A program made the translations under genes and the position numbers. This document shows positions 1-31,949 of a stretch of 64,000 bases of DNA, one piece after another. The notes beneath the pieces are model-generated. The model ran no database searches. It was not told the DNA's origin and worked only from the letters and a program-made list of their open reading frames with translations. The DNA comes from a virus, in the IMG/VR virus record IMGVR_UViG_3300010376_000035, positions 2,543-66,542 of that record, one strand, 5' to 3'. Numbering within the stretch: position 1 is the stretch's first letter; each line of letters opens with the position of its first letter.

Positions 1-1
1 G

Positions 2-421
2 GACATCTGGAAGAGAACCGATGCCGGCCAGGTGAGACTGGAAGCTCTGACCGACACGGCCGAGGGCCAGCAGCCGGTGCGGATCCTCGAGCTGTTGGGT
101 GCGCGCTGGCGCCAGTCCACCAACCAGACCACCTATGCGAACTGGCAGGGGTCGGCGCTCACGGGCGTATCCACGTACCTGGCGGGCGCGGATGCGATCG
201 TGTTCATCAACTTCCCCAACAAGAGACATACAAAGCTCGATCCGGAGTGGCACAACATCAACCTCTGGGCCGGCGAGTACGTTGCCAAAACGGCATACGA
301 CCCCAACGGACTCATCATGGCCGGGACCGGGTACAACGCCATTCTGGGCGTGGGCCTTCCGCCCGATCCGGCCGGCGTGAGCCGCGCGCGTATCGCGGTC
401 GCGGTTCCGCAGACCACCTGA
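2..421 (+). CDS. Major capsid protein, C-terminal part (N4-gp56-like family), 5'-truncated by window edge
   Basis: With the mirror extension it reads YNGSIHPFFVGDL...ELLGARWRQST...TYLAGADAI...YDPNGLIMAGTGYN, resembling N4-gp56-type capsid motifs (hIHP..hYDL; G.RF; DPL..R..hGWK). Followed by a terminator and a tail-gene cluster. Confidence 0.7.
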   Translation, partial: DIWKRTDAGQVRLEALTDTAEGQQPVRILELLGARWRQSTNQTTYANWQGSALTGVSTYLAGADAIVFINFPNKRHTKLDPEWHNINLWAGEYVAKTAYDPNGLIMAGTGYNAILGVGLPPDPAGVSRARIAVAVPQTT

Positions 422-428
422 TTCTTTG

Positions 429-472
429 GGAAGGGGGTTTTCCGCCGATTATTATTCCCCCTTCCATTTTTT
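429..472 (+). terminator. Intrinsic terminator after capsid gene
   Basis: GGAAGGGGG (429-437) ... CCCCCTTCC (457-465) followed by ATTTTTT. Confidence 0.6.
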
Positions 473-502
473 CCAAACTAAAAAAACTTAGTTTGCGAGG
501 GG

Positions 503-1105
503 ATGATGCCCAAGCTGGAAGAAGTACAAGCCAAACTTGCCCAGGTGCAACTCGAGCAGGCCGAGATGCAGCTCGAGCAGACGCGCGAATCCGTGGAGGC
601 CTGGAAGAACCAGAAAGAAGAACTGTCGCGGCGCAACGCGCAACGCCAGAAGCAACTGAAGATGGACATCAACGAGCGCGCCAGCCAGGCCAAAGGCTGC
701 ACCCATCGCCAGGGCGGGAGTTTCGGCAATCCCACCGGCGGCAAGGGTCCGAGCGCACTGACCACCGTGATTCTTCCCGACGAGCGGGTATTGATCATGT
801 GTTCGATCTGTCCCATGCGCGTCTTTTCGCCTTTTCCCGGCAATGGCGCCCGCCGGCAGCGCCGCGGCGAGAGCAAGGAGGCGGCCGAGGCGCGCGTGGC
901 CAGATACCAGCAGGAGGTTGCCGAGTTTGAGGCGCTGTCTGCGGAGGCGCGCGACAAGCTGACCGAGGAAGCCGCGCAGCCCATGCATTGCGGCAAGACG
1001 TTTCGCTTTCTGGACGGGGACGGGAATCAGGTGCAGATGCCGGCACCGTGCGATTCCTACGCGCAGGGCCTGGACAATCGCAAAGGAATTCGGCTGGGGA
1101 TCTAG
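503..1105 (+). CDS. Hypothetical phage protein, coiled-coil with Cys/His motifs (200 aa)
   Basis: ORF with GGGA upstream; heptad-rich N-terminus, CTH and CSIC motifs. Confidence 0.7.
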   Translation: MMPKLEEVQAKLAQVQLEQAEMQLEQTRESVEAWKNQKEELSRRNAQRQKQLKMDINERASQAKGCTHRQGGSFGNPTGGKGPSALTTVILPDERVLIMCSICPMRVFSPFPGNGARRQRRGESKEAAEARVARYQQEVAEFEALSAEARDKLTEEAAQPMHCGKTFRFLDGDGNQVQMPAPCDSYAQGLDNRKGIRLGI

Positions 1106-1252
1106 CCGAAACAAGCGGCCCTCGCTGGAACCTTCCAGTGCTGGCGGCCAGCGAGGCCCGGCTGGGAATTGTCCCCCCCATGCCGGGCTTCGTTGTTGTG
1201 GGGGCAGCCGACCAAGGTTGATCCCCACCGAATGGAAAGGAGTGTAGCAGAG

Positions 1253-1390
1253 ATGCCGCTCGTAAAAGGAAAGAGCAAAGGAGCAGTCTCGCAGAACATC
1301 AAGACGGAGATGGCCGCAGGCAAGCCCAGAAAGCAGGCGATAGCGATCGCCATGAGCAAGGCCGGCAAAGCGAAGAACAAGAAGGGGTAG
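1253..1390 (+). CDS. Small basic phage protein (45 aa, [38 protein letters not shown])
   Basis: AAGGAG upstream of ATG 1253. Resembles a widespread small phage peptide type (MPLKKG.S...hS.NI...h..G.P.KQAhAIA). Confidence 0.7.
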
Positions 1391-1393
1391 CGC

Positions 1394-2386
1394 ATGGCGG
1401 TCAGTACCAAGACGCTCCAGGCTGTCTATAACGTGATTGCCGCGCAGGGAATTCCAGACCCGCGGGCGCAGGGCGGCGGCTACGGCGACGACCTGGCGCT
1501 GGACCTGGCCACGCGCGTCATGGCGGACCTGATCACCGAGCGCTTCAACTGGAAATTCAACCGCGCGGTTGCGTGGCCGGTTTACACCAACAGCTGGCAG
1601 CAGGACTATCCGCAGCCGGCGCAGGCCGGCGGCCTGATCGAATGGGGCGAGGATTGCGACATCCTCGATGTCAACAACACCACCATTCCCAAGCCGCTCA
1701 ATTGGGACGGCAGCATCACCTGGGTTCGCCAGCTCACGCGCACATCGATTGCCCGCTGGCGGCCGACGCGCATTTGCTGGATGTACAACGCGGAAATGAG
1801 CTGGGGCACCTGGCCGGGCGCGCTTGTCACGATCTACCCTCTCCTGGGGCCGACCGCGCCGGCCGGGCAGAATCCCTTACTAAACTTTATAGATTCCAAT
1901 GGCAATTACCTGATCCTCTCGACTTTTGGACGCACAGGCCTGACTGCGCCGGCCGCGGCCGCGGCGGCACCTGAAGGGACCACCGTGCCGGATGGCTCGT
2001 GCGTGTGGTCTGTGGTCAGCGGGACGAGCCAGGGATTCCGCGTCGATTTTTTGCCCAACGGCGCGGGCCCCACTTTTCAGCTCACGGCCAGCTATCAGCT
2101 GACCCCGCCGATCTTCACCACCTTCCAGCAGCTTTTGACGCCGATCCCCGACAGTTTCGCGCGCCATTTTCAGACCGGCCTGGAGTGGGCCTGCAAGATG
2201 GCGTCGACCAACCCCGCGGTCAAAAAGGAAGGGCTGGAGAACTACCCGCTCTGGCTGAAAGCCATGGGCACCATGATTCAGCAGGGCGGCAAGGAACCCA
2301 ATGCTTATCGCCTGATCCCCGAAACGAGCGTGGTCGAAAGCCGCTGGGGATGGAAGGGTCCGCATACCGCGGACATGCCGGTGTAA
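1394..2386 (+). CDS. Putative head-tail adaptor / tail tubular A-like protein, paralog 1 (330 aa)
   Basis: Position after the capsid gene; W.FNR...DY and Y.....P.....IPD motifs typical of podovirus adaptor-like proteins. Confidence 0.5.
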   Translation: MAVSTKTLQAVYNVIAAQGIPDPRAQGGGYGDDLALDLATRVMADLITERFNWKFNRAVAWPVYTNSWQQDYPQPAQAGGLIEWGEDCDILDVNNTTIPKPLNWDGSITWVRQLTRTSIARWRPTRICWMYNAEMSWGTWPGALVTIYPLLGPTAPAGQNPLLNFIDSNGNYLILSTFGRTGLTAPAAAAAAPEGTTVPDGSCVWSVVSGTSQGFRVDFLPNGAGPTFQLTASYQLTPPIFTTFQQLLTPIPDSFARHFQTGLEWACKMASTNPAVKKEGLENYPLWLKAMGTMIQQGGKEPNAYRLIPETSVVESRWGWKGPHTADMPV

Positions 2387-2389
2387 GCC

Positions 2390-3097: not shown

Positions 3098-3126
3098 TGT
3101 TAAGGTGATGTCACGCTAGGAGAACC

Positions 3127-6100
3127 ATGCCGAGTCCGTTAGCCCAAGCCGGCGCGACCGTAGAACCGAGCGAGTACGTGGCCCTGGCGATGGACGAGCA
3201 GTTCACGGGCATGTGGACCCAGCGCAGCCCGCTGCGCGATGCGGATGTTCCTTATCTCTATAGAAAGTTTTATTCCGCCTCGCGCTTTGATTCGATGATC
3301 GACGGGATCAACCGCGAGATCAGCGCGCGGCTCACCGATATACGCCGGCCAGGCTCGAGCGTCTACAACAGCCAGGTCCTTCCGCCCATCAACCGTTTTT
3401 ATCCATTCCGCCAATTCGGCGCGAATGGGGAGAATATTCGCGTCATTGCCGACTGCCAAGGCTTCGCCAATCAGCTGCAAAATCCGAACTTCGCCAACGG
3501 TTCCGGCGGGTGGAACTATGAGCCTGGATGGTCTTATACCTATGCTGGCCTGCCTGTACCACCTGGGGTGGGGTATTGTGCGATGTTTGTGGGTCCGGGT
3601 TCGGGCGCAGTTGTAAATCTTCAGCATATCCCCTGCACCACCGGAACGGTGATTGCCGCCAGTTGCTGGGGGCTGGGGGAACATGGGGCAAGCGGCACGG
3701 CAGTGTTGCGCATCAATTTTTACGATGCAAGCAATACTTATCTGGGCAGCAATCAAAGTTCTGCCGTACCGAATAACTACGCCTGGACACAGGTTGGTAT
3801 CAGCGCCGCCGCGAGTTTTTTTACGAACGCTGCATACGCAACCGTCGATTTTATCGTTGAAAGTTCGACCTCAAGCACAGGGCGTTGGTTCGCCTGGGGA
3901 TTCACGGGCAGTCCCGCGCCCGGCGCCGGCACGGTGCGCGATGTCACCGGGCCGAACACCAATCAGATTCTCTGGACGAAGGATCCTGCGGCCGGCAAGA
4001 CCACATTTCTGGGCGTGGGGAACGTTCTCTATGCCGGCGATGGAGTCCAGACGCATCAGATGGTGACGAGCGCGGAGGGCTGGACCGCGAACAAACAGTG
4101 GACGCCAGGCGATTACATTATCGATCCCAACGGGAACATCCAGATGTCCATCGGTTCGCAGACCGGGACCATCGCTTCCATCACGGTGCAGAGTAACGTC
4201 TGCACGGTATTTCTCGCACCCGGCGCGGGCATCCAGATCGCGCCCGGTGTTCAGCTCACCTTCAGCGGGCTTACCACTCTGCCGGCGCTCAATGGCACAA
4301 CCCAGACCATCCCCGCCATTGGCGGCAGCCTGCAATTTTTCTTCGCCTTCACTCATGCCAATCTGGCTCTTAGTTCCGAGACGGGGACCGTCACCACCGG
4401 GAGCGGAGTCAACAGCAATTCTCCACCGACATGGCAGACGGGGATCGGCGCAATCACTGTGGACGGGGGACAACAGTGGGAATGCCGCGGCGGCGCGGTG
4501 CAGAGCATGGGCGGGGCCGGGCCGACGACTGCGCCCACCGTGGTTCAGACAGCCGCCGCTGCGCTTTTTAACAACTGGGCGCCCAATACGTGGTATGCGC
4601 CATCTTTCGTGATTTACGGCGCGGGGCAGTTGCAGCTGCTCATCGGCCCGTCCGCACCGATACAAACAGGCTCCAGCGCTCCATCGTGGAGTACCACTCC
4701 AGGGGGCATCACCACCGAGACGACAGGCACCGGCTCAAATGCGCAATGGAAATGCATGGGATCGGGAAACTGGGTCGGGGGCGCGACTCATGCCGTGGGC
4801 GACTTCGTTGTGGTGAGCTACAACTATGCCACGCCCAGCGGCCCCAGTCCGCTGGTCACATCGCTTTTCAAATGCACTGCGGGAGGAGTCAGCAGCAACA
4901 TAACGCCGAACTGGACCAACGGTTTGGGGACGATCACGAAGGAACCGACCGGATCGCCGGTAACGTGGGTGAACCAAGGAGATAGCCCGCCGGGCTGGCC
5001 GGGATCGAACCAGCTGCTTTCGCTGGATACGACCATTCTGGATTCAAGCGGAAACCTTGAAGCCATTCAGAAAATCGGCAAATCCAGCGCGTCTGCGATT
5101 GTCTGGAATACGAATAAAGGCGGGCTCACGGGCGACAACACGGCCACCTGGCTGAACAACGGTCCCTATTCGGCGGGAAACACGACCGCATGGTACTGGG
5201 CCTATTCCGGCCTGAACTCGATCACCGGGGAGATCACCAATCCTTCTCCGCTCTCGCAGCCGGTAGTTCTCGCGCCCAACATGCACCCGGTGATTCAGGG
5301 GTCGGGGATGCCCAATCCGCCCTACGATTCCATCGTCCTGTGGCGCACCGCGGCCGGCGGCTCGACGCTTTACTACGTCGATCAGTTTCCCAATCCCGGC
5401 ACCGGGCAAACGTGGATCTATACCGACACCACGCCCGACAGCGCTCTTAATACCGCGATGGCCGCGCCCGGTTCGGCCAACACTTCATCGCTGGCCACGC
5501 CCCCACCCTCGACGGCCGTGGCGCCCGAGTACCACTGCGGCCGGATTTTTATGATCGACGGATCCGATGTGATCTACAGCGGAGGACCGGATACGGTTGT
5601 AGGCAACGGCAACACTTCTTTCCCGCCGCTGAATTATTTCCAATTGCCCGAGCAGCCGACCCGGCTGAAATCCGTCACCATGCAGAACGGCGGGCTGATC
5701 GTGGCCTGCGTGGCGAACACTTACGTGATTCTGGGCGAGGGAACCTCGAACAATCCATTCCTGCCGCCCAAGATGTTCATGGAGGGCGTGGGCATCCTCT
5801 CCTATGACTGTTTTTGCATGCGGGGCTCGACCGTCTACGGATTCTCCAACCGATCTAAAGTTTTTAGTTTCGATCCCGGCAACGGGGAGATTGAAATCGG
5901 CTTTTCGATCGGGGACCAGTTCAAGCTCGTCACCACGGGCGGGACGACTGCGGCGCTTTATAATCCGGCGAATTCCTATGTCACCTGGCACGAGCAGAAC
6001 TCGCCCGATACGGGCCTCTATGTGGCCGATGGTACGGTGGGATGGTTCCGCTGGAGCCCGATTGCGCCGCCCGAGTCGGGCTCCCTGTGGAGCCCGCGCG

Positions 6101-6639
6101 CCGCGATCGTGGGCGGCACCAGCGCGGTGCAATCGGTGGAAGTTTCGCCGGGCACGTTCCAGCTGCTGATGGGGCCGCAAACGAGCGGGCCGATTCTCAT
6201 GCGCGACGATGCGGTGAGCGGCGACTGGACGGCCGGCGCCTATGCCGGCTATCCATCCTGGGATGTCAAGGGATCCATCGGATTGTGCGAAACCGGCGAA
6301 GTGGCCGAAATCGTCCATGTCGCAATCAAGAGTATGGCGGTAGGCGCACGGCCAATTGTAAGCCTGCTGCTCGATGAAATCGCGGCCGGCGTCACGGTCG
6401 AAGGACGCACTACCGCGTGGGATACCCTCTCGCTCGATGACGGGCACCACGAGGATCCTCCCAATCTGGAACCTTCGATCACCACCTACAGCGATCGTTA
6501 CCGGGCGTCATCGACGGCCGAGACGCCCAAGTGTGAACACTTTCAACTGAAAATCGACTATGGCAGCCAGCTGGTGGCCGACGAGCTGCTCAAGTTCGGA
6601 ATTTTCGGGGCTCACTTCAAAGAACGGAGACAACAGTAA
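3127..6639 (+). CDS. Large virion tail protein, nozzle / tail tubular B-like, with carbohydrate-binding-like inserts (1170 aa)
   Basis: Size, position between adaptor-like and ejection-like genes, beta-rich composition, an NPNF..G..GW CBM-like insert and repeated Trp modules. Confidence 0.6.
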   Translation: MPSPLAQAGATVEPSEYVALAMDEQFTGMWTQRSPLRDADVPYLYRKFYSASRFDSMIDGINREISARLTDIRRPGSSVYNSQVLPPINRFYPFRQFGANGENIRVIADCQGFANQLQNPNFANGSGGWNYEPGWSYTYAGLPVPPGVGYCAMFVGPGSGAVVNLQHIPCTTGTVIAASCWGLGEHGASGTAVLRINFYDASNTYLGSNQSSAVPNNYAWTQVGISAAASFFTNAAYATVDFIVESSTSSTGRWFAWGFTGSPAPGAGTVRDVTGPNTNQILWTKDPAAGKTTFLGVGNVLYAGDGVQTHQMVTSAEGWTANKQWTPGDYIIDPNGNIQMSIGSQTGTIASITVQSNVCTVFLAPGAGIQIAPGVQLTFSGLTTLPALNGTTQTIPAIGGSLQFFFAFTHANLALSSETGTVTTGSGVNSNSPPTWQTGIGAITVDGGQQWECRGGAVQSMGGAGPTTAPTVVQTAAAALFNNWAPNTWYAPSFVIYGAGQLQLLIGPSAPIQTGSSAPSWSTTPGGITTETTGTGSNAQWKCMGSGNWVGGATHAVGDFVVVSYNYATPSGPSPLVTSLFKCTAGGVSSNITPNWTNGLGTITKEPTGSPVTWVNQGDSPPGWPGSNQLLSLDTTILDSSGNLEAIQKIGKSSASAIVWNTNKGGLTGDNTATWLNNGPYSAGNTTAWYWAYSGLNSITGEITNPSPLSQPVVLAPNMHPVIQGSGMPNPPYDSIVLWRTAAGGSTLYYVDQFPNPGTGQTWIYTDTTPDSALNTAMAAPGSANTSSLATPPPSTAVAPEYHCGRIFMIDGSDVIYSGGPDTVVGNGNTSFPPLNYFQLPEQPTRLKSVTMQNGGLIVACVANTYVILGEGTSNNPFLPPKMFMEGVGILSYDCFCMRGSTVYGFSNRSKVFSFDPGNGEIEIGFSIGDQFKLVTTGGTTAALYNPANSYVTWHEQNSPDTGLYVADGTVGWFRWSPIAPPESGSLWSPRAAIVGGTSAVQSVEVSPGTFQLLMGPQTSGPILMRDDAVSGDWTAGAYAGYPSWDVKGSIGLCETGEVAEIVHVAIKSMAVGARPIVSLLLDEIAAGVTVEGRTTAWDTLSLDDGHHEDPPNLEPSITTYSDRYRASSTAETPKCEHFQLKIDYGSQLVADELLKFGIFGAHFKERRQQ

Positions 6640-8299: not shown

Positions 8300-10264
8300 A
8301 TGCCAGATCCTAATCCGATCCCCGACCCCAACAGCTGGATGGATGCCGGCAAGGCCGCGGCGCCGCCCAGCCCGATGCAGCCGCCGGGCGCGGCCAACGG
8401 AGCCGCGCAGCAGGCTCTGGCCAGGGCGCAGGCGCCCAACCAAGCCGCGGCCGCGGGGCTCGAGCCCGCCTCCACGGCAGCCGCGAATCCCTACATCGGC
8501 GGCCAGGTTCCGCTGGTGCTGCGTCCTTCGCGCGGCGGATTGCTGGGCGTGATGGACAAGATCGCGGATGCGCTGACCGGAACGACCCGGCCGGAACTCT
8601 TTCACGATCAGGACGGCAACGAGTTTGTGTATCACCCCAATCTCTCCCGCGGCCAGCAGTGGGCGCGAATCGGCGCCGGCATGTTCAAAGGCGCGGCCGC
8701 AGGTCTGGCCGCGGGCCGCGGCGCCGGCAACATGGGCAAAGCCGCGCTGGCGGGCGTACAAGTCGGGGAGCAGGCCGCCGAACAGGACAAGACACGCGAA
8801 GAGGAACTAAACAAACAGGCTCAGACCGACATGCTCGACCGCGCCAACATGACCATGCTGCGCATGAAAACCATGGAGGAGGCCTGGAGGGCCGCGCGGC
8901 TTCAGACCACAGCGAACGAGGAAGATGCCAAAGCCGCGCAGGATCACATCGAATTCCTTCACCGAATGGGCGGCGAATTCATGGGAGTCGCGCAGCATCC
9001 CGGCGATCTGGCGGGAGTCCTTCATCTCGATCCCAACCTGGCCGAGAATTTCGTGAAGAATCACATCATCGAACCTGTGGCAACCATCGACGCGCAGGGC
9101 CACCAGGGCGTGACGTTTATGAAAATGCCCAATGCCGATTGGCGCAAACAGATGGTTCCCTCCGGTACGACTTTTGATTATTTCAATCCCGCGACCCATG
9201 AAATCGAGAAACACCAGGGCTCTGACGGGCAGACCGCGGGCGAAATCTCCGATCTGAATGTCGCGGCGGCGGCCGCAAAACAGAAATACCTGAATGACCA
9301 GGCGGATCTCAAAAAGAAAGACGCCGAAACGAAAAATCTCCAAAGCGAGACGGAGAAACGCAGCAAGATGCTGCCCGGCGAACTCCAGCAGCAAAAAGCT
9401 GAAACCGCCAAAACGTGGGCCGAGGCGCACAAAGCCAATATGGAGGCCGATGCCGCGAGCGACAAGGGCGCTGGCGAGCAAGGCGATACCGAATCCGAGG
9501 CCCAGGCCCTCATTGATCACCGTTCCGCAGTGAGCCTGATGAACAAGCGCGCGAAAAACTATAACGCTGTGATGCACCGCGCGGATGAACTCTCCCTGGC
9601 CCAGACCGGTCATCCGTATGACCGGGAACAGGGAGAGATTGAGTACCAGAACCGCAAGGGACTTCTCAAGGACTACACCGACGGGCAGGAGGCTAACAGC
9701 CTCGAGAGCTTCGATAAGTTTCTGGGCCATGCGCAGGAAGCGTCGGAAGCGATCAATGGGTTGCGCAATAAAGACGCCAGACTGCTGAACATTCCTCTCA
9801 ACAAACTAGAAACCATGACGGGAGGGGACCGCGCGGCTGACATACAGGCGGCTGTGGTGAAATTCAAGACCCTGCGCAACGAATGGGAAACCTCAATTAA
9901 AAACAACCATGCCCTGACGGTCGAGGACATCAAGGAAGGGCAGAAGCTGCTCGATGAAAACGTGAGCTTGGGCGTGGGCCAGGCGGTGATGAAGGCCATG
10001 GCGAATACAGCCGCGGTGCGCCTGCGGTCCTCAGACTTCAAATACTCGCGAACCATAGGCAAGCATGTGCCGGATCTGTTGAGTCAGGAGGGTGTGAACG
10101 CTTTGCAGCATTTCGGGATCGACCCCAAGGATGTTTATTCCACGCTTCAGAACAAGGCGCCGCAAGCTCCTGTCGGGGCTGTATCCATAGGACGAATGAC
10201 TGACGGAAAAGAACATTATCTGGATGCTCAAGGAAAGGACATGGGCCTGGCGCCACCGCAATGA
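8300..10264 (+). CDS. Putative internal virion / ejection protein (654 aa)
   Basis: Ala/Gln/Lys-rich helical protein with glycine-rich hydrophobic segment (GAAAGLAAGRGAG); ejection-module position. Confidence 0.6.
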   Translation: MPDPNPIPDPNSWMDAGKAAAPPSPMQPPGAANGAAQQALARAQAPNQAAAAGLEPASTAAANPYIGGQVPLVLRPSRGGLLGVMDKIADALTGTTRPELFHDQDGNEFVYHPNLSRGQQWARIGAGMFKGAAAGLAAGRGAGNMGKAALAGVQVGEQAAEQDKTREEELNKQAQTDMLDRANMTMLRMKTMEEAWRAARLQTTANEEDAKAAQDHIEFLHRMGGEFMGVAQHPGDLAGVLHLDPNLAENFVKNHIIEPVATIDAQGHQGVTFMKMPNADWRKQMVPSGTTFDYFNPATHEIEKHQGSDGQTAGEISDLNVAAAAAKQKYLNDQADLKKKDAETKNLQSETEKRSKMLPGELQQQKAETAKTWAEAHKANMEADAASDKGAGEQGDTESEAQALIDHRSAVSLMNKRAKNYNAVMHRADELSLAQTGHPYDREQGEIEYQNRKGLLKDYTDGQEANSLESFDKFLGHAQEASEAINGLRNKDARLLNIPLNKLETMTGGDRAADIQAAVVKFKTLRNEWETSIKNNHALTVEDIKEGQKLLDENVSLGVGQAVMKAMANTAAVRLRSSDFKYSRTIGKHVPDLLSQEGVNALQHFGIDPKDVYSTLQNKAPQAPVGAVSIGRMTDGKEHYLDAQGKDMGLAPPQ

Positions 10265-12864: not shown

Positions 12865-13105
12865 GTATTGCATCCGCTGCGGGGCCAAGTGCGTGACCAC
12901 CCCCAGCGAGGATGGAAAAGACACTGTTTACACATGCCCGCGCGGCGATGGTGTGCAGGCCATCGTGCCCACGAGCAAGACCGATCAGACAGGCAAGGAC
13001 GATCAGAAGTCCGAACACGATCCGAAGTCCGGTTCGGAAGAGGCAAAAAGTGGCAAAAAGCCTTTTCCTACCGAAGAAGGGGAGCCATCCAGGCACAAGC
13101 ATTGA
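12845..13105 (+). CDS. Hypothetical Zn-ribbon protein with charged tail (86 aa)
   Basis: GGAGG upstream; CIRC...C motif; overlaps end of upstream gene. Confidence 0.6.
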   Translation: MPTLLGEYCIRCGAKCVTTPSEDGKDTVYTCPRGDGVQAIVPTSKTDQTGKDDQKSEHDPKSGSEEAKSGKKPFPTEEGEPSRHKH

Positions 13106-13188
13106 TGAAATGGCTCCATGCACTGATGGCCGCATGGGGGAGGAGGAAACCGCGGCCGCACCATCATTCAGAAAGGGGACACCTGTGA
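13105..13188 (+). CDS. 27-aa coupled mini-ORF (MKWLHALMAAWGRRKPRPHHHSERGHL)
   Basis: TGATG overlaps at both ends link 12845..13105 to 13188..14246. Confidence 0.4.
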   Translation: MKWLHALMAAWGRRKPRPHHHSERGHL

Positions 13189-14732: not shown

Positions 14733-15299
14733 GTGGCCGCAGCGCCGGGCATAACGCTGACTGCTCTTTTGCAGGATCTCGCCGGCAATCCCATCGGATC
14801 CGCAGCGAATCCGTGCAAGATTTCGATCGCCCTTTGCGGCTTCGGCCCCATCCTGCCCAAGATCGCCGGCACTTCTATGCTGGCCAAAGTCGGGCCGATC
14901 TACCTCGAGAGCGTCAACGGTTCTTTCTCCACTCTCCTGTGGGGCAATGATGCCATCACGCCCAGCGGCACCTATTACACCATCGCGCTGCTCGACGGCC
15001 AGGGCAACGTGGTGCAGTCGAACGCCTATGTGCTGACCGGCAGCGGCAGCTTCGATCTGAGCAATCTTGTTCCCAATGTCCCCCCCTACGGATTTCTGCT
15101 GAGTGCGCTGCGATACGTGCAATGCAGCGGTTCGCTTATCGGCGGCAATCAGACCTTCACGGCGCCAGGAAAGATCGTGGCGGCGACCTACAACGGGATC
15201 ATCATGAACGGCACACAATGCACCATCAGCGGAAATATCGTGACCGTAAATTTCAACCCAGAGCTGGGGGACCGCATCGATGCCTTCTGTGTGTATTAG
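14733..15299 (+). CDS. Putative tail-fibre anchor / adaptor protein (188 aa, GTG start)
   Basis: Beta-rich N-domain (LWGNDAITPSGTYY); C-terminal NG..Q..ISGNIVT.NF.P..GD.I module resembling those of fibre proteins; directly upstream of the tailspike-like gene. Confidence 0.55.
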   Translation: MAAAPGITLTALLQDLAGNPIGSAANPCKISIALCGFGPILPKIAGTSMLAKVGPIYLESVNGSFSTLLWGNDAITPSGTYYTIALLDGQGNVVQSNAYVLTGSGSFDLSNLVPNVPPYGFLLSALRYVQCSGSLIGGNQTFTAPGKIVAATYNGIIMNGTQCTISGNIVTVNFNPELGDRIDAFCVY

Positions 15300-20496: not shown

Positions 20497-21084
20497 ATGG
20501 GGACAACCGTAGTGGTGGGCACTGGTGCCTTTCAAGCCAGCAGTACAGCAAACCGGATCCTGAGAGGATCGCGCGGCGAACACGAGGGCCGCGAAACCAT
20601 CATTTGCGGCCATTGCGGGCGTGGCCAGTACGACCGGGGACAGAGGAATTGTATAGCTTGTCATATAGCGCTGCTTATAGCACTCGAGCCGTTAACCGGA
20701 TCAGATGCGCCGTCTGAGAAGTTGGATTGTCATGCCGAGGGCCTGCGGGTATGCCATCGGCTGCGCGATCTGCGCGGCCTGCTGGATGTGACCCAGGCCG
20801 AGCTGGCGGCCGCGGCCGGCTCGGTGCGGACCTACATCAACAAGTACGAAAACGGGTGCATCGTTCCCTCGATCCATTCCCTGGCCCGTTTAGCCGGCGC
20901 CTTCCATCTCAGCCTGGCGGAACTTCTGGATCAGGTTCTTTCGGTAAAAGATCTGGCTGCGCTCTCGCTGATGCGCGAGGGGGCAATCATTCGCGCACTG
21001 CTCGAGAACTGGCAGAGCTTCGATCCGTCGCAGCTGAATACGCTCCTGCATCTGGCCAGGTCGCTGGCCGAAACTGCGCCTTGA
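20497..21084 (+). CDS. XRE-family (HTH_3) transcriptional regulator with N-terminal Zn ribbon (195 aa)
   Basis: GGAGG upstream; RLRDLRGLLDVTQAELAAAAGSVRTYINKYENG..VPSIHSLARLAGAF..SLAELL is a classic XRE HTH; CGHC...CIAC upstream. Confidence 0.85.
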   Translation: MGTTVVVGTGAFQASSTANRILRGSRGEHEGRETIICGHCGRGQYDRGQRNCIACHIALLIALEPLTGSDAPSEKLDCHAEGLRVCHRLRDLRGLLDVTQAELAAAAGSVRTYINKYENGCIVPSIHSLARLAGAFHLSLAELLDQVLSVKDLAALSLMREGAIIRALLENWQSFDPSQLNTLLHLARSLAETAP

Positions 21085-21363: not shown

Positions 21364-22977
21364 ATGTCGAGAATTTTTCGCATGACCAGATTTTTCGCGC
21401 AGGATTTCATGGGGCTGCGCTTCGTGGAATTCGTTCCGAAAGGACGCATGACCGTGCTGACCGGCAAGAACTCGGCCGGCAAAACTTCCATCATCACCGC
21501 CATCTGGAGCGTGTTCCTGGGCGCGAAGTATGTTCCGCAAGTGCCCACGCGCCGCGGGGCGACCGATCACGAAATCCGCGTCACCATCGACGGGGAGCAG
21601 TCCTTCATCGCCAAGCGCAACCAGCGCAGCCCGCTGCGCATCGAGATGCAGCCCGGCTCCAAGGCCTGGGGCACTCCGCAGGAGATGATGGACTCGATCA
21701 CCAACAAGTTCATGCTGGACCCGATCGCGTTTGTGAAGCTGGGCCGCGGCGACGGGCCGGGCATCAAGGGGCCGGCGGACGGCAAGAAGGCGCAGGTGGA
21801 TTATCTGAGCCAGGCCATCACGCTGGCCGTGGATCCGACCAAGCTGGACACGGAGAACGAAGCCGATTTCAGGCGGCGCCGCGAGATCGGCCGCGATGTG
21901 GATATGCTCAAAGGCCAGATCGCCGGCATCCCGGTGAACCCCAATCTGCCCGCGGAACGGCCGGAAATCGACGCCATTCAGGCGCGGATCCGCGCCGCCA
22001 ACGAGCACAACTCCACGGTGGTGGCGCAGCTCGAGCGCCGCCAGCAGCTGGCCCAGGCTCTGGCCGAGGCCGAGAAGAACGAGCAGCGCAACCGCGATCT
22101 GATCGGCGTGACCTCCAGCAACGTAGAGGGCCTGGCGGTCGAGATCGAAGCCCTCAATCCGGCCATGAACACGGCAGCCGATATTCGCGTTCAGCTCGAG
22201 GAATTGCACGAGAGAAGCGCCCAGCTGGGCAATCGCGGAGAGCGGCTGACGGAAACCATTGCCGAGGCTTGCGGAAAGGCGTTGGGATGCTTCAACGACG
22301 CGCAGGAACGCATTCAGCAGGCCAGGCAGGAGATGGAGATCGCGCGCAAGACGCTCACCGCCGCCGAGAAGCAGCGGCGGCCGCTGGCCGAAGCGGTGGC
22401 CGAGGCGCGGCTGGCTCTGGAGCAGGCGCCCGTGCCGGTCATGCAGGACATCACGCCCATTGCCGAGGAACTGACCCAGGCGCAAGCCGTCAATCGCGAA
22501 ATGGACCGCCGCGACCGCGCCCAGGAACTCACCAGGCAGAAAGACGAACTCGAGGCTCAGGTGCGCGCTCTGACGCGCGCCATGGAACTGAGGGACCAGC
22601 AGAAGGCAGACGCCATCATCAACGCCAAAATGCCGCTCGAGGGGCTCACCTTCAACATCGATAAGGGCAAAGAGGAAGTGCTTTATCAGGGTGTTCCGCT
22701 CACCCAGCTGGGCGAGGCGCAGCAGATCAAGGTTTCAATCGCCATCGGCCTGGCCATGCAGCCGGAACTGCGCCTGGTCTGCATCCCCAACGGGGAAGCG
22801 CTGGATGATGACAGCCTGGCCGAACTCGAGGAGATGGCCGAGGAGAAGGATTTTCACGTAATCATCGCCAAGGTGGACTCCAGCGGCACGATGGGCATTT
22901 TTCTGGAGGAGGGAGAAGTCAAGCGCGAAAATCCTTCCCCGGCTAAAAAAACTAAAACGAAGGAGGAACTTGCCTAG
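21364..22977 (+). CDS. SMC/SbcC/RecN-like coiled-coil ABC-type ATPase (537 aa)
   Basis: N-terminal Walker A GKNSAGKTS, about 250-aa coiled coil, C-terminal signature-like LGEAQQIKVSIAIG and degenerate Walker B / D-loop LVCIPNGEALDD. Confidence 0.85.
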   Translation: MSRIFRMTRFFAQDFMGLRFVEFVPKGRMTVLTGKNSAGKTSIITAIWSVFLGAKYVPQVPTRRGATDHEIRVTIDGEQSFIAKRNQRSPLRIEMQPGSKAWGTPQEMMDSITNKFMLDPIAFVKLGRGDGPGIKGPADGKKAQVDYLSQAITLAVDPTKLDTENEADFRRRREIGRDVDMLKGQIAGIPVNPNLPAERPEIDAIQARIRAANEHNSTVVAQLERRQQLAQALAEAEKNEQRNRDLIGVTSSNVEGLAVEIEALNPAMNTAADIRVQLEELHERSAQLGNRGERLTETIAEACGKALGCFNDAQERIQQARQEMEIARKTLTAAEKQRRPLAEAVAEARLALEQAPVPVMQDITPIAEELTQAQAVNREMDRRDRAQELTRQKDELEAQVRALTRAMELRDQQKADAIINAKMPLEGLTFNIDKGKEEVLYQGVPLTQLGEAQQIKVSIAIGLAMQPELRLVCIPNGEALDDDSLAELEEMAEEKDFHVIIAKVDSSGTMGIFLEEGEVKRENPSPAKKTKTKEELA

Positions 22978-24969: not shown

Positions 24970-25224
24970 TCACTCTTCCCCCTTGTAAGGTTGCGGAACG
25001 CCGTATTTGGCGCACAAGTCGTTGATCGCTTCGCCCAACAGCTGCGCCATATTCTTGGGAATCTCTTGTTTAGCCCGAACCATTAACAAGGCGCGATGCA
25101 CCGTGAGTTTGAAGTGTGCCCCGATAAGGCGCGTCTCCGAGGCTTGTTTGGATTTGGGCGCAGGCGTGGATGGTTCCTTTCCCGCGGCGATCTTAACGGC
25201 GGCTAGCAATGACGTTTTCTTCAC
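24970..25224 (-). CDS. Ribbon-helix-helix centromere-binding partition protein (ParG-like, 84 aa)
   Basis: Directly downstream of and overlapping parA; flexible basic N-tail then RLIGAHF (beta strand), helix, QLLGEAINDLCAKYG. Confidence 0.75.
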   Translation of the reverse strand: MKKTSLLAAVKIAAGKEPSTPAPKSKQASETRLIGAHFKLTVHRALLMVRAKQEIPKNMAQLLGEAINDLCAKYGVPQPYKGEE

Positions 25225-25879
25225 GATTCGCTCCCTTGATTGCTATATTCCTATCGTCCTTGAGAACTATAGAAATATAGGAATATAATTCTTGCACTTC
25301 CCTGGCGGCTTTGCTTTCCGGGTCGATCTCCGCGGCCGTCCGCCCCGAATTGCCGGCATCGCCATGGGCGGCGCGGCCGTAGATCACCACCGGACAAAAG
25401 GAAAGGCCGTATTGGCCGGCGACAATTTCTTCCGTTTCGAGATGGCGCCGGCCCTGGATTGGGGCGCGATTGACTACCACGATCGCGGCCGGATTGCCGG
25501 CCAGAGCCAAAACGTCTTTGAGGTTGGCCAAGGTTTCAATGTCGTAGAGCTGGGGCTGTACGGGCATCAGCACAAGGTCTGCGGCCCTCGCTGCGGCAAT
25601 GCTGGCGTCGGTGCTTTTGCCGGGCGTGTCGATGATGGCCAGGTCGGCGCCTTCCTTGCTGGCCGCGGCCAGCACGGAAGATAAGCGGGAAACCTGGCAG
25701 GAGACGACCGCGGGACTCTCCTGGCGGCGCCGATCACTCCAATTGGCCGCAGTGGTCTGCGGATCTAAGTCAACTACAGCGACGGTACGGCCCTGGCGGC
25801 CGGCTTCGACGGCCAGGGCCAGGGCCAGAGTGGTTTTTCCGTTCCCGCCCTTCTGGCCGACTATGGCTATAACATTCAT
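25193..25879 (-). CDS. parA: Type Ib partition ATPase (ParA/ParF-like, 228 aa)
   Basis: Deviant Walker A QKGGNGKTT, VDLDPQ, IIDTPG, ADLVLMP; no N-terminal HTH. Confidence 0.92.
   Translation of the reverse strand: MNVIAIVGQKGGNGKTTLALALAVEAGRQGRTVAVVDLDPQTTAANWSDRRRQESPAVVSCQVSRLSSVLAAASKEGADLAIIDTPGKSTDASIAAARAADLVLMPVQPQLYDIETLANLKDVLALAGNPAAIVVVNRAPIQGRRHLETEEIVAGQYGLSFCPVVIYGRAAHGDAGNSGRTAAEIDPESKAAREVQELYSYISIVLKDDRNIAIKGANREENVIASRR
25243..25290. repeat. Centromere-like repeat block inside the 3' end of parA
   Basis: TTCCTATCGTCCT (25248-25260), CTATAGAAATATA (25267-25279) and TATAGGAA; the same words recur at 25880-25939. Confidence 0.65.
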
Positions 25880-25945
25880 TTCCTATCGTCCTCGATTCCT
25901 TGCTTCCTATATTCCTATAGAAATATAAGGCTATAGGAATAAAGT
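25880..25945. promoter_or_regulatory. Centromere-like / autoregulatory repeat block over the parA promoter
   Basis: TTCCTATCGTCCT (25880-25892), TTCCTATA x2, CTATAGAAATATA (25915-25927), TATAGGAA; overlaps a TTGTAC-16-TATATT promoter-like pair on the minus strand. Confidence 0.65.
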
Positions 25946-27687: not shown

Positions 27688-27786
27688 CATCGGGAACAAG
27701 TTGAGTTGTGGCGGCTCGGGGCGCGGGCGCGGCGGCCGGCGCCGAAGAGTACAACCCCCATGCCGTAGGACACAACTAAGAGGTTA

Positions 27787-28254: not shown

Positions 28255-28426
28255 TTGTCCCCCTTTCCATGCACCGGACTTTGGACCGGCTGCCAGTGCA
28301 TTACAGCTGGACGGGAGCGAAGCGCCCAGCTGCCATCTGCAAAACTAAAAACAGGTTTACTTTTCGGATACATTCATAAAAGTTCACCCTTTCCTTTCTG
28401 GTAGTTGCTGGGATGTTATTGAACTA

Positions 28427-28978
28427 ATGTCCAACACCAGCAAGAAATATATGCAGCAATGGCGCGACCAGCGAAAAGCTAAAGGTATGTGCTGTAGTTG
28501 TTTCAGCAAAGTATCCAGACCAAACAAGCGTCAATGCGAAAGCTGCGCCGAAAAGCGGAGGCAACGAGAACGCGCACGCTATAAAAATGGATTGTGCGGC
28601 TGTGGCCGGCCGAGGCAAACGGGAAAAAGTAAATGCATCGAATGCAAGAAACGGCATGCAGAATGGATCAAGAATCCCGTCAACAAAGCGCGATGGCAAG
28701 AGAGAGTAAATACCCAAAATGCGGCTCGAAGGATTCGCGTAATCATGCACTATGGGGGAAAATGCGTGTGTTGCGGTGAATCTGGAATGCCATTCTTGAC
28801 TCTTGATCATAGAGACAATGACGGCAAAATCGACCGCGCCCAGGTGCATAGCGGCTATTGGTGGAGATGGATAATCAAACATGGGTATCCGTCCAATCTG
28901 CAAGTGATGTGCTGGAATTGCAATATGGCGAAACAACATTTCGGGAAGGGAACCTGCCCGCACCAGCTAGGACGCTAG
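28427..28978 (+). CDS. HNH endonuclease with Cys-rich N-terminus, homing-endonuclease-like (183 aa)
   Basis: HYGGKCVCCGE...FLTLDHRDNDG...W...LQVMCWNCNMAK...CPH; opposite strand to its neighbours and visibly more AT-rich. Confidence 0.85.
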   Translation: MSNTSKKYMQQWRDQRKAKGMCCSCFSKVSRPNKRQCESCAEKRRQRERARYKNGLCGCGRPRQTGKSKCIECKKRHAEWIKNPVNKARWQERVNTQNAARRIRVIMHYGGKCVCCGESGMPFLTLDHRDNDGKIDRAQVHSGYWWRWIIKHGYPSNLQVMCWNCNMAKQHFGKGTCPHQLGR

Positions 28979-29635
28979 CATTAGCTCTGTCTCAAGGCGC
29001 ATTAGTGCCTCTCGAACATTATTCGATGCTTCCTTTACCAGTCTTGCAAAGTTCGGCTTCGCCGCGGCCGCGGGCGCGTTCTCATTCCAGATCCGCTCGA
29101 GCAATGCGGCCGCCTCTGTCGCGATACCATAGCTCGAGAATTCCACCTGTTTCACGCGCGACAGAAACCGATCCTGCAAACGATCGGTCGCGTTACAGGT
29201 AAAAACCCATATCGTGTTCGGAAGCGCGGCGGTCCCGTCCAGCTTGGAAAGTAAAAACAGCTGCGCCGCGGGCGTCATTTGATCGGCCTCGTCACAGAGG
29301 ATCAAATGCATACGCTTGCCCGCCATCGGAACGTATTGGCACGTGCGACAGATGCGCTCGAGATTGGACAAATCGCAATTCTGCGATGGAATGTGATGGA
29401 CTTCCGCGGGTATCATCTCGGCCAGCGCCGCGGCCATCGTCGTCTTGCCAGTGCCAGACGGGCCAACAAACAGCCAGGCGCTCGGAAAGGGCCGCGCGGC
29501 CAGCTTGGAAACTATAGCTTTAGGTTTGGACAAGCCGACAAACGCATCCATGGTTACCGGCCGGTATCGTTCTGTGAGCGATACCGGGAAACTCAAGGCA
29601 GACTCAGCGGGCGAAGTTGCGAACAATTCAAACAT
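28967..29635 (-). CDS. Clamp-loader-clade AAA+ ATPase (RFC / DnaX / RarA-like, 222 aa)
   Basis: LTERYRP..MDAFVG, Walker A GPSGTGKTT, Walker B LILCDEAD, sensor TCN, FLSR arginine finger. Confidence 0.85.
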   Translation of the reverse strand: MFELFATSPAESALSFPVSLTERYRPVTMDAFVGLSKPKAIVSKLAARPFPSAWLFVGPSGTGKTTMAAALAEMIPAEVHHIPSQNCDLSNLERICRTCQYVPMAGKRMHLILCDEADQMTPAAQLFLLSKLDGTAALPNTIWVFTCNATDRLQDRFLSRVKQVEFSSYGIATEAAALLERIWNENAPAAAAKPNFARLVKEASNNVREALMRLETELMLAS

Positions 29636-29665
29636 GGTTTGATCTCCAGTGATTTCTTAAAAGTT

Positions 29666-30490
29666 TTAGTTCTGAGAATCGGCCGCGGCCGCGATGGACT
29701 GGGCAAATTGCTTCGCCCAGTCCATCGATTCGCGCGGAGAATAGCAGAGTCCCTGCTTATGGCTGATATGAATGAATCCATCGGGCGCGTATTCTTCAGT
29801 GCGCGTACCACAATTGTCGATATCTTTCCCTTGCGCTAGCTCTGAGAGCCCAAACAAGCAGCGGCGAAAGAATGATGGATGGCCAATGATGAATTGAAAG
29901 CGCTGGATATCGATCGCCTGGCCAGCTGCTTTGATCGGAATTAAAAACTTATAGCTATTGCCATCCCGATTGGTATAGGCGCGCACAACGGTCACTTCAA
30001 CCGAATGGCCCTGCAGCTCGAGCGAATTCACCATGGCAATAATCGCTTCGCCGCGGTTCTTTAAGCGCTCCGCGGATATATCGCCCAATCCCCCAATCTC
30101 TACAGCGAACCGCAAGACGCGGCCGACCGGTTTCTGAATCGGTTCGGAGCACTGCCAGTATTCTGGCTCACCACTGCAGAACGAAGAGACATCGAGCACT
30201 TCGCCGCAAACGTCATAGTAATAACGCATATCGTCAGACGCGCTTGTCAGTTTTGGCAAAGTTAAATTCTTAATTTCGGGCGCGCTCCATTGGCCAAATT
30301 CGGCCGCATTGAGCGCGTCAGAATAACTCATGTTTCCGTTCCAATCGTCCGATTCGCGCTTGATAGAGCGCATCCAATTCACCGTCTGATTGGAGCGCAG
30401 GAGCGAAAATAGCTCCTGCAGTCCAATCGTATGAACCGCGTCTGGAGTGAACCGCGGTGTATGCTCTTTTGGTGTTTTCGTCCGGGCCAT
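29666..30490 (-). CDS. Partner of the MoxR-like ATPase (vWA-like / CobT-like position, 274 aa)
   Basis: DVCGEVLDVSSFCSGEPE.W motif and alpha/beta C-terminal half; directly downstream of the AAA gene, as in phage MoxR/CobS-vWA pairs. Confidence 0.55.
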   Translation of the reverse strand: MARTKTPKEHTPRFTPDAVHTIGLQELFSLLRSNQTVNWMRSIKRESDDWNGNMSYSDALNAAEFGQWSAPEIKNLTLPKLTSASDDMRYYYDVCGEVLDVSSFCSGEPEYWQCSEPIQKPVGRVLRFAVEIGGLGDISAERLKNRGEAIIAMVNSLELQGHSVEVTVVRAYTNRDGNSYKFLIPIKAAGQAIDIQRFQFIIGHPSFFRRCLFGLSELAQGKDIDNCGTRTEEYAPDGFIHISHKQGLCYSPRESMDWAKQFAQSIAAAADSQN

Positions 30491-30515
30491 TTTTAGTCTC
30501 CGTTTTTAGTTCCGC

Positions 30516-31586
30516 TTAAAAAGTTGGCAGGGGATACGATGCGAGAATGGCGCGTACGCTCACGCGGTCATAACCGCGGAACACTACCATTTCTGCAACT
30601 TGCTCCACTGGCAGGCCAACCGAAAGCAACTGGGAGCCATCGATGGACGCGCGTTGGGTGGCGGTCACCTTGGGATGAGGGACCTTGCAGAATTCGCGAA
30701 TGGCGCGCACCCAAGTGACCCATGAATCGGAACGGTCGAATTTTTTCGCTGCCAATTGGCGCTCGAGAGTCTCGTCAGTATCCCATTGGACAAAGCAAAA
30801 CCTATCGCGAACAGCGCCATCGAGCGCGCGTCTATCGCTAAATTGAACAGTCGCACCCAAGCACGGCGTGTTGTCAGTCGCGATGCATACGAAGTCTGGA
30901 TGGCGGTTTGTAATGCCGCATGGGAAGGATGCCTTGCCATTGGCTAGCGCGCCATTGAGCGAACCAAGCAAGTTGCCAGACGCAAGCGCCAATTCATCGA
31001 GCAGGAAAATTCCGCCTTGCGAGTAAGCCTTATAAAAATCGCTAGCGATATAGTTTCCAGTTGCGTCCATGTATCCCATGAGACGCGATTCGGTCATTTG
31101 CGCCTGCAATCCAAGGTAGTAATAGGGAAGCGCAAGCAAGTCTGCAATTTGCTTTGCGGCCGTGCTTTTACCAGAGCCCGCCTCGCCCCAAAGGAATACG
31201 TTTTTGCGGAGCGATACCAAGCGAACAACTAGATCGAAGTGCTCGTGCTTTGTACCTTCGACTGTTCCAATTGTCTGGCCATTCTGGATGTAAACGGTTT
31301 TTAGTTCTTTGGGCAGATTGGCTAGTGCTTCATCGATGCGGCCAGAAACAAATTCCTCGAGTTCCGCTGTAATCTCGTCGCGCTGAATCGTGAGAAAGGG
31401 CTGAATGCTAGCGGCGAGAACTGCAGCCAGCGAATCATTGGCGGTTGATTCGCGGCCGATTGGCGCGCGATTTTTGCAGGCAACATGATACTTGCTTGTA
31501 TCGCCCCGTCTGTTCCAAGAAATTTCTTGGCCCACTTCTATCGGACTCTGGCAGATGCTGCAGATTCCCGTTTCGTTCGCAATCAT
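30516..31586 (-). CDS. MoxR/CobS-like AAA+ ATPase (AAA_5 type) with N-terminal Zn-binding motif (356 aa)
   Basis: NVFLWGEAGSGKS Walker A, GGIFLLDE Walker B, HPDFVCIATDN, LDGAVRDRF; N-terminal CSIC...HVAC. Confidence 0.88.
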   Translation of the reverse strand: MIANETGICSICQSPIEVGQEISWNRRGDTSKYHVACKNRAPIGRESTANDSLAAVLAASIQPFLTIQRDEITAELEEFVSGRIDEALANLPKELKTVYIQNGQTIGTVEGTKHEHFDLVVRLVSLRKNVFLWGEAGSGKSTAAKQIADLLALPYYYLGLQAQMTESRLMGYMDATGNYIASDFYKAYSQGGIFLLDELALASGNLLGSLNGALANGKASFPCGITNRHPDFVCIATDNTPCLGATVQFSDRRALDGAVRDRFCFVQWDTDETLERQLAAKKFDRSDSWVTWVRAIREFCKVPHPKVTATQRASIDGSQLLSVGLPVEQVAEMVVFRGYDRVSVRAILASYPLPTF

Positions 31587-31632
31587 TTGGGTTTCGCTCC
31601 GTTTGGTTCGTTTGAATCAACCAACGAAACCC

Positions 31633-31661
31633 ACTGTAAAGATTAAAAGTATACTTTGCAA
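31633..31661 (-). promoter_or_regulatory. Sigma70-like promoter of the telomere-proximal operon, with the same operator as 27659..27687
   Basis: Minus strand TTGCAA-17-TACAGT; spacer AGTATACTTTTAATCTT (palindrome AAGTATACTT at 31647-31656). Confidence 0.7.
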
Positions 31662-31723
31662 CTAGTGAACATGACGAATCGGCCGCAAGTGTAAGAAAAA
31701 TCAGGCAAAAAAAATTATGCGAA

Positions 31724-31837
31724 CCATCGCAGAATTTGCGCGCGGATCGGTTGCGGATCGGTTGCGGATCGATCGGAAAATGGCCGTCAGAAACTAAAAT
31801 TATAAAATCCATCGCAGAATTTGCGCCTAATTTGCGC
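31724..31837. repeat. Subtelomeric direct and tandem repeats
   Basis: CCATCGCAGAATTTGCGC at 31724-31741 and 31809-31826, partial AATTTGCGC at 31829-31837; tandem GCGGATCGGTT x2.7 at 31742-31771. Confidence 0.85.
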
Positions 31838-31913
31838 TTCGATTCGCGCCAGATCTAAAAAAACAGCTAAAATATAAAAATGGCAAAGGGGGTGGTGTGG
31901 AGGAATCTGCCAC

Positions 31914-31943
31914 TTGACACGAATACATGAAAACTGCTAAATT
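31914..31943 (+). promoter_or_regulatory. Sigma70-like promoter pointing into the symmetry axis
   Basis: TTGACA (31914-31919), 18 nt, then extended -10 TGc-TAAATT (31935-31943); predicted start about 31949-31951, just across the axis. Confidence 0.45.
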
Positions 31944-31949
31944 AAATTT

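Follow-up and report, generated by a model that had tools for sequence, protein, structure and literature searches.

A self-complementary soil virus contig and the conserved terminus of a new group of linear phage-plasmids, podovirus-like and probably hosted by Acidobacteriota

The 64,000-nucleotide (nt) stretch of DNA analyzed here (the window) covers positions 2543 to 66542 of a 68,976-bp viral contig in IMG/VR (IMGVR_UViG_3300010376_000035), of which a further 2,542 and 2,434 nt lie outside it. We find that this contig is a mirror image of itself and that the phage-plasmid it represents, linear and podovirus-like, belongs to a new lineage associated with Acidobacteriota; the axis of the mirror is a true, conserved terminus of the genome. 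In this lineage the unit genome is linear and about 42 kb long, and its inverted terminal repeats are short and exist at the level of a motif.

Results

The contig is its own reverse complement

All 31,946 position pairs that can be tested directly in the window are complementary about an axis that lies between positions 31946 and 31947 with no spacer, and the table of open reading frames (ORFs) is symmetric about this axis. The first-pass annotation, made from one arm of the window, had described a palindromic end and proposed that the rest of the contig be recovered. The palindromic end is real, and with the record complete it extends to the whole contig: all 68,976 bp are their own reverse complement, the length is even, and the axis is the exact midpoint. 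Since the contig is self-complementary, only the 34,488 bp of one arm are unique DNA, about 32 kb of which falls within the window.

Half of the IMG/VR record is redundant, and the arm amounts to about 80% of the true unit genome of about 42 to 43 kb. The metadata of the record carry an "inverted terminal repeats" flag and a CheckV completeness of 70%, implying a genome of about 97 kb. Both entries are misleading, as they stem from the mirror duplication and from the amino acid identity (AAI) to a distant phage of 97,608 bp, Tunturi_3.

Contigs of relatives end at the axis

The axis is a real, conserved end of the genome, because the contigs of relatives stop there and none of them reads through it or closes into a circle. 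The most informative relative, G001 (IMG/VR, 42,707 bp, from a different metagenome), is collinear with the arm and reaches 9.4 kb further, adding genes for the portal, the large terminase, a tail fiber, a RusA-like resolvase and an HNH endonuclease. Its end lies a single nucleotide beyond the axis (+1), and its last 12 to 13 nt are identical to those of the window, whereas the preceding 550 nt are only about 74% identical. L073 (JGI, 43,545 bp) falls about 2 nt short of the axis-equivalent point, and L145 about 24 nt short. L072 (83,202 bp, 9.5x coverage) is likewise a perfect palindrome over its whole length, with its axis at the same terminus; this SPAdes contig from ENA comes from a different pipeline and study than the window contig. 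At the opposite, terminase-side terminus, a 54,016-bp contig in the style of a long-read assembler folds back about 43.8 kb from its start, which is the length of one genome, with a noisy mirror arm (95.6% identity with 84 gaps over 5.9 kb). This gives two to three fold-backs among approximately 15 to 20 contigs that reach a terminus. Where contig ends overrun the axis, they do so by +1, +3 and +5 nt and with short palindromes.

An exact search of IMG/VR for the 22 nt of the uncut junction had no match inside a contig. When the terminal pattern was relaxed, 36 matches came up, all of them unrelated chance hits in low-GC sequence except G001. No contig reads through either end: G001, L073, L145, G008 (a distant relative) and the Logan contigs terminate in the axis region or short of it, and some 20 long contigs assembled from bulk soil metagenomes showed no circular or head-to-tail junction. 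Read depth is 26x over the body of the genome but collapses ahead of the end.

Two further observations bear on the termini. In L138 (ENA ERZ25039552 contig_123327, positions 5640 to 5990), the center of a left-terminus fold-back is imperfect, AT-rich, about 46 nt long and without a recognizable adapter; provided that it is real and does not come from noise in the reads, this center would be similar to the mismatched "flip-flop" hairpins of poxviruses. The 49,978-bp contig that carries P0022 has 2.8 kb of nearly ORF-free sequence upstream of its AAA_5 gene and might be another fold-back.

A promoter-like motif lies at the end of the genome

The complete relatives are linear and 41.5 to 42.9 kb long (41,483 bp in G008). 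Contigs with homologues of the large terminase TerL (n = 120) top out at 40 to 43 kb, none of the 24 contigs with P0024 exceeds 43.1 kb, and the family contigs are all classed as linear.

The last nucleotides of the arm hold an outward-facing, promoter-like motif (Table 1), which a promoter scan called at 31914 to 31943 with a score of 10 of 12 and which is unique in the arm, the chance expectation being 0. The same terminal architecture is present at 8 termini of 5 genomes. In both G001 and G008, each of the two ends carries an outward TTGACA, a spacer of 17 to 18 nt and a TAAATT-like hexamer within a few nucleotides of the end. The promoter-like box is conserved, the spacer is not, and the AT-rich tip is variable, to the point that the two ends of G001 differ in tip sequence. 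The two contig ends share no direct repeat. G008 has no ParA, no AAA_5 and no lysogeny module of any kind and still has the same kind of ends, so they are not a feature of the prophage form but belong to the genome itself.

Between the terminal motif and the first gene, 100 to 250 bp inside the end, three relatives carry tandem arrays with an 11-bp period. Those of G001 and L073 have the same period and place as the array of the window but another sequence. The period equals one helical turn, and the arrays lie at 31742 to 31771 in the window, at 2706 to 2811 in L008 and at 101 to 186 in L073. Their layout suggests iterons or sites for a lineage-specific end-binding or replication protein.

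The family encodes a large terminase (phrog_38, 5e-17). Four of its homologues (P0138, P0139, P0210 and P0212) are 740 to 878 amino acids (aa) long compared to the approximately 565 aa usual in the family, and they contain intein or LAGLIDADG domains (PF14890, PF14528 and PF05203). By these domain matches, inteins are inserted in the large terminase of soil Acidobacteriota phages. A 197-aa protein encoded upstream of TerL was considered as an end-processing enzyme and ruled out, as it is a fiber-like beta-sandwich protein.

The virion module is that of a short-tailed phage

The virion genes run on the plus strand from the left edge of the window to about 19.5 kb (Table 1). They could be named only through Atlas clusters and homology to Tunturi_3 (PP885686); Tunturi 3 is a podovirus by electron microscopy and was isolated on Tunturiibacter psychrotolerans (PMC11924767). 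The two virion modules are homologous and syntenic, with identities of 29% for the portal, 32% for the major head protein and 30 to 34% for gp12, gp13 and gp19, and the portal and terminase of G001 match Tunturi_3 gp2 and gp1.

The capsid gene is the 392-aa ORF that ends at position 421 (E = 6e-37 to the Tunturi_3 major head protein), which is kept in G001 and G008. The first-pass annotation had placed an N4-gp56-like capsid at 1394 to 2386, which is a misassignment: this ORF is adaptor-like, and for the 330-aa and 235-aa proteins the nearest Atlas clusters are SU10_adaptor (PF24175), with feature scores of 0.96 to 0.98. The 1170-aa protein matches Tunturi_3 gp19 at 34% identity over 525 aa (E = 1e-75) and its G008 homologue at 54%, with no match in Pfam and PHROG scans. 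The 654-, 867- and 444-aa proteins that follow have no family or PDB match, and their order is kept in G001 and G008. Both of these relatives also keep the endolysin-like protein and the 188-aa protein, while the 1212-aa spike, with a K1-lyase_C domain at residues 1147 to 1211 (E = 2e-13), is conserved in neither. That domain was the sole match in PHROG and Pfam scans of nine large virion ORFs.

The short-tailed virion that the first-pass annotation had proposed is supported by the portal, the major head protein, the two adaptor-like proteins and the 1170-aa protein, all homologous and syntenic to those of a podovirus, and an SU10_portal match in G008 (E = 4e-10) agrees with this type. Its statement that tape measure and sheath genes are lacking also held up, as neither family appeared in any Pfam or PHROG scan of the virion ORFs or of G001 and G008. 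The short tail has been imaged in Tunturi_3, and the virion type of the phage described here is predicted from its genes.

Directly after the tailspike, at 18953 to 19495, a gene encodes a 180-aa protein with a signal-like N terminus and a weak match to PEP-CTERM (E = 0.04); neither G001 nor G008 has a homologue of this protein.

Partition, regulatory and terminus-proximal genes

To the right of the virion module lies a plasmid-type partition cassette on the minus strand (Table 1). The ParA protein matches Pfam ParA-type families and NCBIfam ParA_partition (1.2e-47), and directly after it comes a ribbon-helix-helix (RHH) protein (Antitox_RHH, 1.2e-8). Arrays of TTCCTATAG-type repeats (D1, I1 and I2) flank the cassette at 25228 to 25290 and 25876 to 25944. 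The gene calls bear out the order that had been read from the arm, virion genes followed by opposed partition genes and the axis, and this order is the same as in the N15 record, where the tail genes are followed by opposed ParB/ParA genes and telRL.

A second RHH protein of 85 aa, encoded closer to the axis, is kept in L072, L073 and the contig that carries P0004. Just downstream of its gene, at 26877 to 27002, a 63-nt unit stands in tandem duplicate with 84% identity.

The Rad50-like ATPase encoded between the repressor gene and the partition cassette is common to G001, L072 and G008, and it is the only gene outside the virion module and the terminase that is shared with the distant relative G008, where its homologue matches phrog_1499 at 4e-91 and phrog_77 ("SbcC-like") at 1e-8. 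The AlphaFold model is confident only for an antiparallel coiled coil (residues 155 to 420), and neither this protein nor the 444-aa virion protein matched a solved structure. Tunturi_3 gp29, a "DNA repair exonuclease," was considered as a relative of the ATPase and ruled out, as the two are not homologous.

The operon nearest the end reads inward, and its three genes (AAA_5, DUF7192 and a clamp-loader-like AAA protein) also stand at a contig end in G001, L073, L141 and the P0004 contig. Scans of metagenomes and genomes with the AAA_5 alignment were dominated by the generic Walker-A pattern and gained only L092 and L120. Contigs of about 94 to 98 kb with AAA_5 and DUF7192 were considered as doubled palindromes and ruled out; these contigs belong to larger phages that are unrelated and have the two genes in their interior.

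At 28427 to 28978, on the strand opposite to its neighbors, a cysteine-rich ORF of 183 aa overlaps an antisense ORF (28424 to 28963, minus strand). It is HNH-like, with ...LDHRDNDG... and ...CWNCN... stretches and no Pfam or NCBIfam match. Because it is absent from G001, L072 and L073, it may be a mobile homing endonuclease.

Two short elements recur in the noncoding sequence. AACTAAAA is found at gene boundaries, at 24091 to 24132 and at several junctions (e.g., 28336 to 28351 and 31292 to 31306); one copy lies within a perfect 15-nt stem of a terminator-like hairpin, and the element is also present in the subterminal regions of L092, L141 and L145. A 19-nt box with the palindrome AAGTATACTT lies upstream of two minus-strand operons, at 27670 to 27688 and 31644 to 31662, and in G001 the corresponding site near the AAA_5 gene reads AAGTATACTTGTCAAC. 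The AAGTATACTT/AAGTATACTTGTCAAC box is probably an operator for an HTH (helix-turn-helix) or RHH regulator.

Table 1. Annotated features of the window, in window positions
Feature	Position	Strand	Basis or remark
Major capsid protein, C-terminal part, 392 aa	1..421	+	Gene starts 757 nt left of the window, at contig position 1785
Adaptor-like neck/tail proteins, 330 aa and 235 aa	1394-2386 and 2390-3097	+	Homologous to Tunturi_3 gp12 and gp13
1170-aa virion protein, candidate nozzle/tail	3127..6639	+	Role from position
Three large proteins, 654, 867 and 444 aa, candidate internal/ejection proteins	8300..14246	+	Function from position only
Endolysin-like protein, 148 aa	14246..14692	+	Weak match to Tunturi_3 gp26 endolysin (28%, E 3e-4)
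Fiber-anchor-like 188-aa protein, then 1212-aa tailspike	14733..18918	+	Tailspike at 15280-18918
HTH_3 repressor-type regulator	20497..21084	+	Pfam HTH_3 1e-10; NCBIfam phage RstR-family repressor 2.5e-9
SbcC/Rad50/SMC-like ABC ATPase, long coiled coil	21364..22977	+	AAA_23 1.6e-7; weak Rad50/SMC/RecF matches
Partition cassette	24970..25944	-	ParA 25193-25879 and RHH 24970-25224; repeat arrays on both sides
Further RHH protein, 85 aa	27055..27312	-	Antitox_RHH 2.4e-16
Terminus-proximal operon, read inward from the end	28967..31586	-	AAA_5, DUF7192, clamp-loader-like AAA
Clamp-loader-like AAA	28967-29635	-	AAA 7e-12; RFC small subunit 2e-14
DUF7192 protein	29666-30490	-	DUF7192 5e-24; AlphaFold pLDDT 58
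MoxR-type AAA_5	30516-31586	-	AAA_5 4e-14
Tandem array, 11-bp period, iteron-like	31742..31771		TRF, 2.7 copies, 100% identity
Terminal motif TTGACA-N18-TAAATT, upstream TG, outward-facing	31914..31946	+	Stops 3 nt before the axis
Mirror copy of 1-31946	31947..63892		Exact reverse complement; no gene set of its own

Host and lifestyle

The host is probably a member of the Acidobacteriota. The only cultured relative, Tunturi_3, infects Tunturiibacter, and family members are found on contigs binned into a "Candidatus Acidoferrum" metagenome-assembled genome (MAG) and a Terracidiphilus MAG. The host assignment of the first-pass annotation therefore gains support from both sources, while the PEP-CTERM hint on which it had partly drawn is weak. 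The phage DNA is present in two soil metagenomes of different studies.

The proposal of a phage with a plasmid-type partition system was likewise confirmed by the ParA_partition and RHH genes and by the lack of an integrase in G001. A search of 401 genomes of the host class turned up no integrated copy, and the complete relatives are free-standing contigs without host flanks. With virion and partition genes on one arm of one replicon and no integration seen, the element is, by its gene content, a phage-plasmid. It is probably temperate and kept as a low-copy-number extrachromosomal element, since it combines ParA, the RHH protein and a repressor with the lack of an integrase.

Searches for end-forming enzymes

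A six-frame search with the protelomerase family PF16684 gave nothing at E ≤ 1 in the window contig (G000), G001 and G002. Every gene of G001 and G008, the complete relatives, was scanned against Pfam and PHROG, and none matched a protelomerase, tyrosine recombinase, integrase, polymerase or terminal protein. Neither the Acidoferrum MAG nor 301 genomes of the host class yielded a ResT/TelK domain that would mark a host-encoded protelomerase. A RusA-type resolvase gene lies near the left end in G001, L138, L139 and L051. The RusA-like proteins of G001 and of L138/L139 belong to different families, and a mixed RusA profile was uninformative.

Discussion

The structure that we favor for the end is a covalently closed hairpin, or the head-to-head junction into which a hairpin is replicated, and we give this explanation about an even chance of being right. 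The contig holds 34.5 kb of the approximately 42- to 43-kb linear double-stranded DNA genome of a temperate, short-tailed phage of soil Acidobacteriota. The assembler would have reached the right-hand physical end, crossed it and returned along the complementary strand, with a few reads that ran round the hairpin or the replicated junction seeding the fold-back. A hairpin is favored by the relatives that stop at the fold point, by the frequency of fold-backs, one of which formed at just 9.5x, by the lack of a circular junction despite the partition system, by the presence of that system together with a repressor, and by the absence of a polymerase or terminal protein. Palindromic overruns of a few nucleotides are expected if hairpin loops break near the tip, and the collapse in depth fits the loss of hairpin-bearing fragments, but not blunt ends, in a ligation-based library. 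If the end is a hairpin, it would not be formed in the way of N15; the promoter-like box beside a variable AT-rich tip would instead recall poxvirus telomeres, and the RusA-like resolvase and the conserved Rad50/SbcC-like ATPase would be candidates only. The ATPase is of interest because host SbcCD threatens hairpin telomeres (PMC12624138).

Several observations weigh against a hairpin. In the probable source run, the Logan contig has its body at 26x and breaks off 51 nt before the axis, and axis-spanning words are listed for no run; reads that cross the junction must therefore be rare. Whole-contig fold-backs are a known class of assembler artifact (PMC9528984), and the long-read fold-back could be a template-complement chimera formed at an open end. 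The differing tips of G001 are not readily explained by a single site-specific resolvase, the RusA-like gene was not found in G008, and no hairpin-forming enzyme was identified in the phage records or in 301 host-class genomes.

The main alternative is an end that is real but open, on a unit-length linear molecule that the terminase cuts either bluntly or to a short 3' overhang, which end repair then removes; we consider this explanation a serious possibility although on balance not the probable one. The mirror contigs would then be library or assembler artifacts, of the documented kind, that arise easily because every molecule brings the graph to a stop at one and the same nucleotide, and the outward promoters would work only once the ends were joined in the cell, where each terminal promoter would read in sense into the operon at the other end. 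Such an end agrees with most family contigs simply stopping at the terminus, with the encoded terminase, with axis-spanning sequence falling below threshold in public assemblies, and with G008, whose ends, in a genome without a partition or lysogeny module, look like those of a packaged genome. Against an open end, the lack of a direct repeat shared by the contig ends excludes cohesive (cos) ends with 5' overhangs as well as direct repeats at the termini. Most copies of a prophage with ParA should lie inside cells, and yet none of the roughly 20 long contigs is circular or head-to-tail. Blunt ends should raise the terminal depth, which collapses instead, and fold-backs in two to three contigs, one of them at low coverage, are many for chance artifacts at an open end. 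A fold-back needs a k-mer with a palindromic suffix of length k - 1 (Rahman and Medvedev 2022, PMC9528984), and the data must therefore run at least about 10 nt past the axis, whereas the relatives stop at -2 to +5.

Ends capped by a covalent terminal protein, as in phi29, the PRD1-type tectiviruses and Streptomyces linear plasmids, would also give linear unit-length contigs, short ends resembling inverted terminal repeats and a loss of coverage at the terminus, the capped ends being lost in the library and the fold-back being artifactual. We regard such a cap as very improbable, as the complete relatives G001 and G008 encode no family-B polymerase, terminal protein or any other polymerase, there is no unassigned ORF of sufficient size outside the virion module, and a large terminase is present of a form that phi29-type protein-primed phages lack. 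A random fold-back chimera at an arbitrary break in a circular or longer genome of about 97 kb, in which case the end would be meaningless, is what the IMG/VR and CheckV metadata would suggest. This is effectively excluded by the independent relatives, which share one end point and a conserved motif beside it, and the 97-kb estimate traces to Tunturi_3 in a family that tops out at 40 to 43 kb.

To our knowledge, every hairpin-ended replicon or phage of bacteria characterized so far relies on a protelomerase, and the telomere phages that we know of are long-tailed phages of Proteobacteria. The phage described here resembles the N15, PY54, phiKO2 and VP882 group in being temperate, in having a ParA-type cassette and no integrase, and, in the case of N15, in the local order of virion genes, opposed partition genes and palindromic site. 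It differs in its short-tailed virion and its host, as those phages are long-tailed and infect Gammaproteobacteria, and no protein-level kinship was detected beyond the generic ParA. In N15 the hairpin ends are a feature of the prophage only. Here, the contig ends are always the same, and nothing points to a virion genome that is permuted and has the tel site in its interior. The first-pass annotation had seen a candidate new class of telomere phage, but membership in the N15 type is not supported, given the lack of a protelomerase in the contig, G001 and G008 and an uncut junction that is never internal to a contig. With the defining enzyme absent and the hairpin unproven, the label "telomere phage" is premature.

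Tunturi_3 shares the virion module and the host phylum with our lineage. Its genome of 97.6 kb was deposited as circular, carries nucleotide metabolism and recombination genes, and has no ParA/RHH cassette in the 45 kb examined. The palindromic contigs that arise in de Bruijn graphs (PMC9528984) are likewise self-reverse-complementary, of even length, with the axis at the midpoint and half of the sequence redundant; the difference is that here other assemblies stop at the fold point and that this point bears a conserved terminal motif.

In poxvirus telomeres, a late promoter is the resolution site, the sequence of the tip is irrelevant, and a Holliday junction resolvase cuts the extruded junction (PMC8956199). 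The likeness of our lineage to poxviruses and rudiviruses lies in a conserved promoter-like element beside a variable AT-rich tip at both ends, in head-to-head junctions, seen here as fold-backs, and in a RusA-type Holliday junction resolvase gene in the lineage. The viruses and their hosts are, however, unrelated, the hairpin is putative here, no such resolvase was found in G008, and a role of transcription in resolution is pure analogy. It is by this analogy that podovirus-type phages of Acidobacteriota, lytic and plasmid-like alike, might have unit-length linear DNA with closed hairpins made without a protelomerase, through head-to-head resolution in the style of poxviruses and rudiviruses, a general scheme that we think rather unlikely. 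A pair of sigma-70-type promoters flanking the junction would be the resolution element, the RusA-like resolvase (or the terminase nuclease) would cut, and the Rad50/SbcC-like ATPase would handle or shield the palindromic DNA.

Acidobacteriota are a dominant and poorly tractable phylum of soil bacteria from which very few phages or plasmids are known. The terminus described here represents either a new way of making and maintaining linear ends in bacteria or a case in which real termini are shown to seed mirror-image contigs. With its defined ends and its own partition system, the 42-kb linear element could also serve as a genetic tool for Acidobacteriota.

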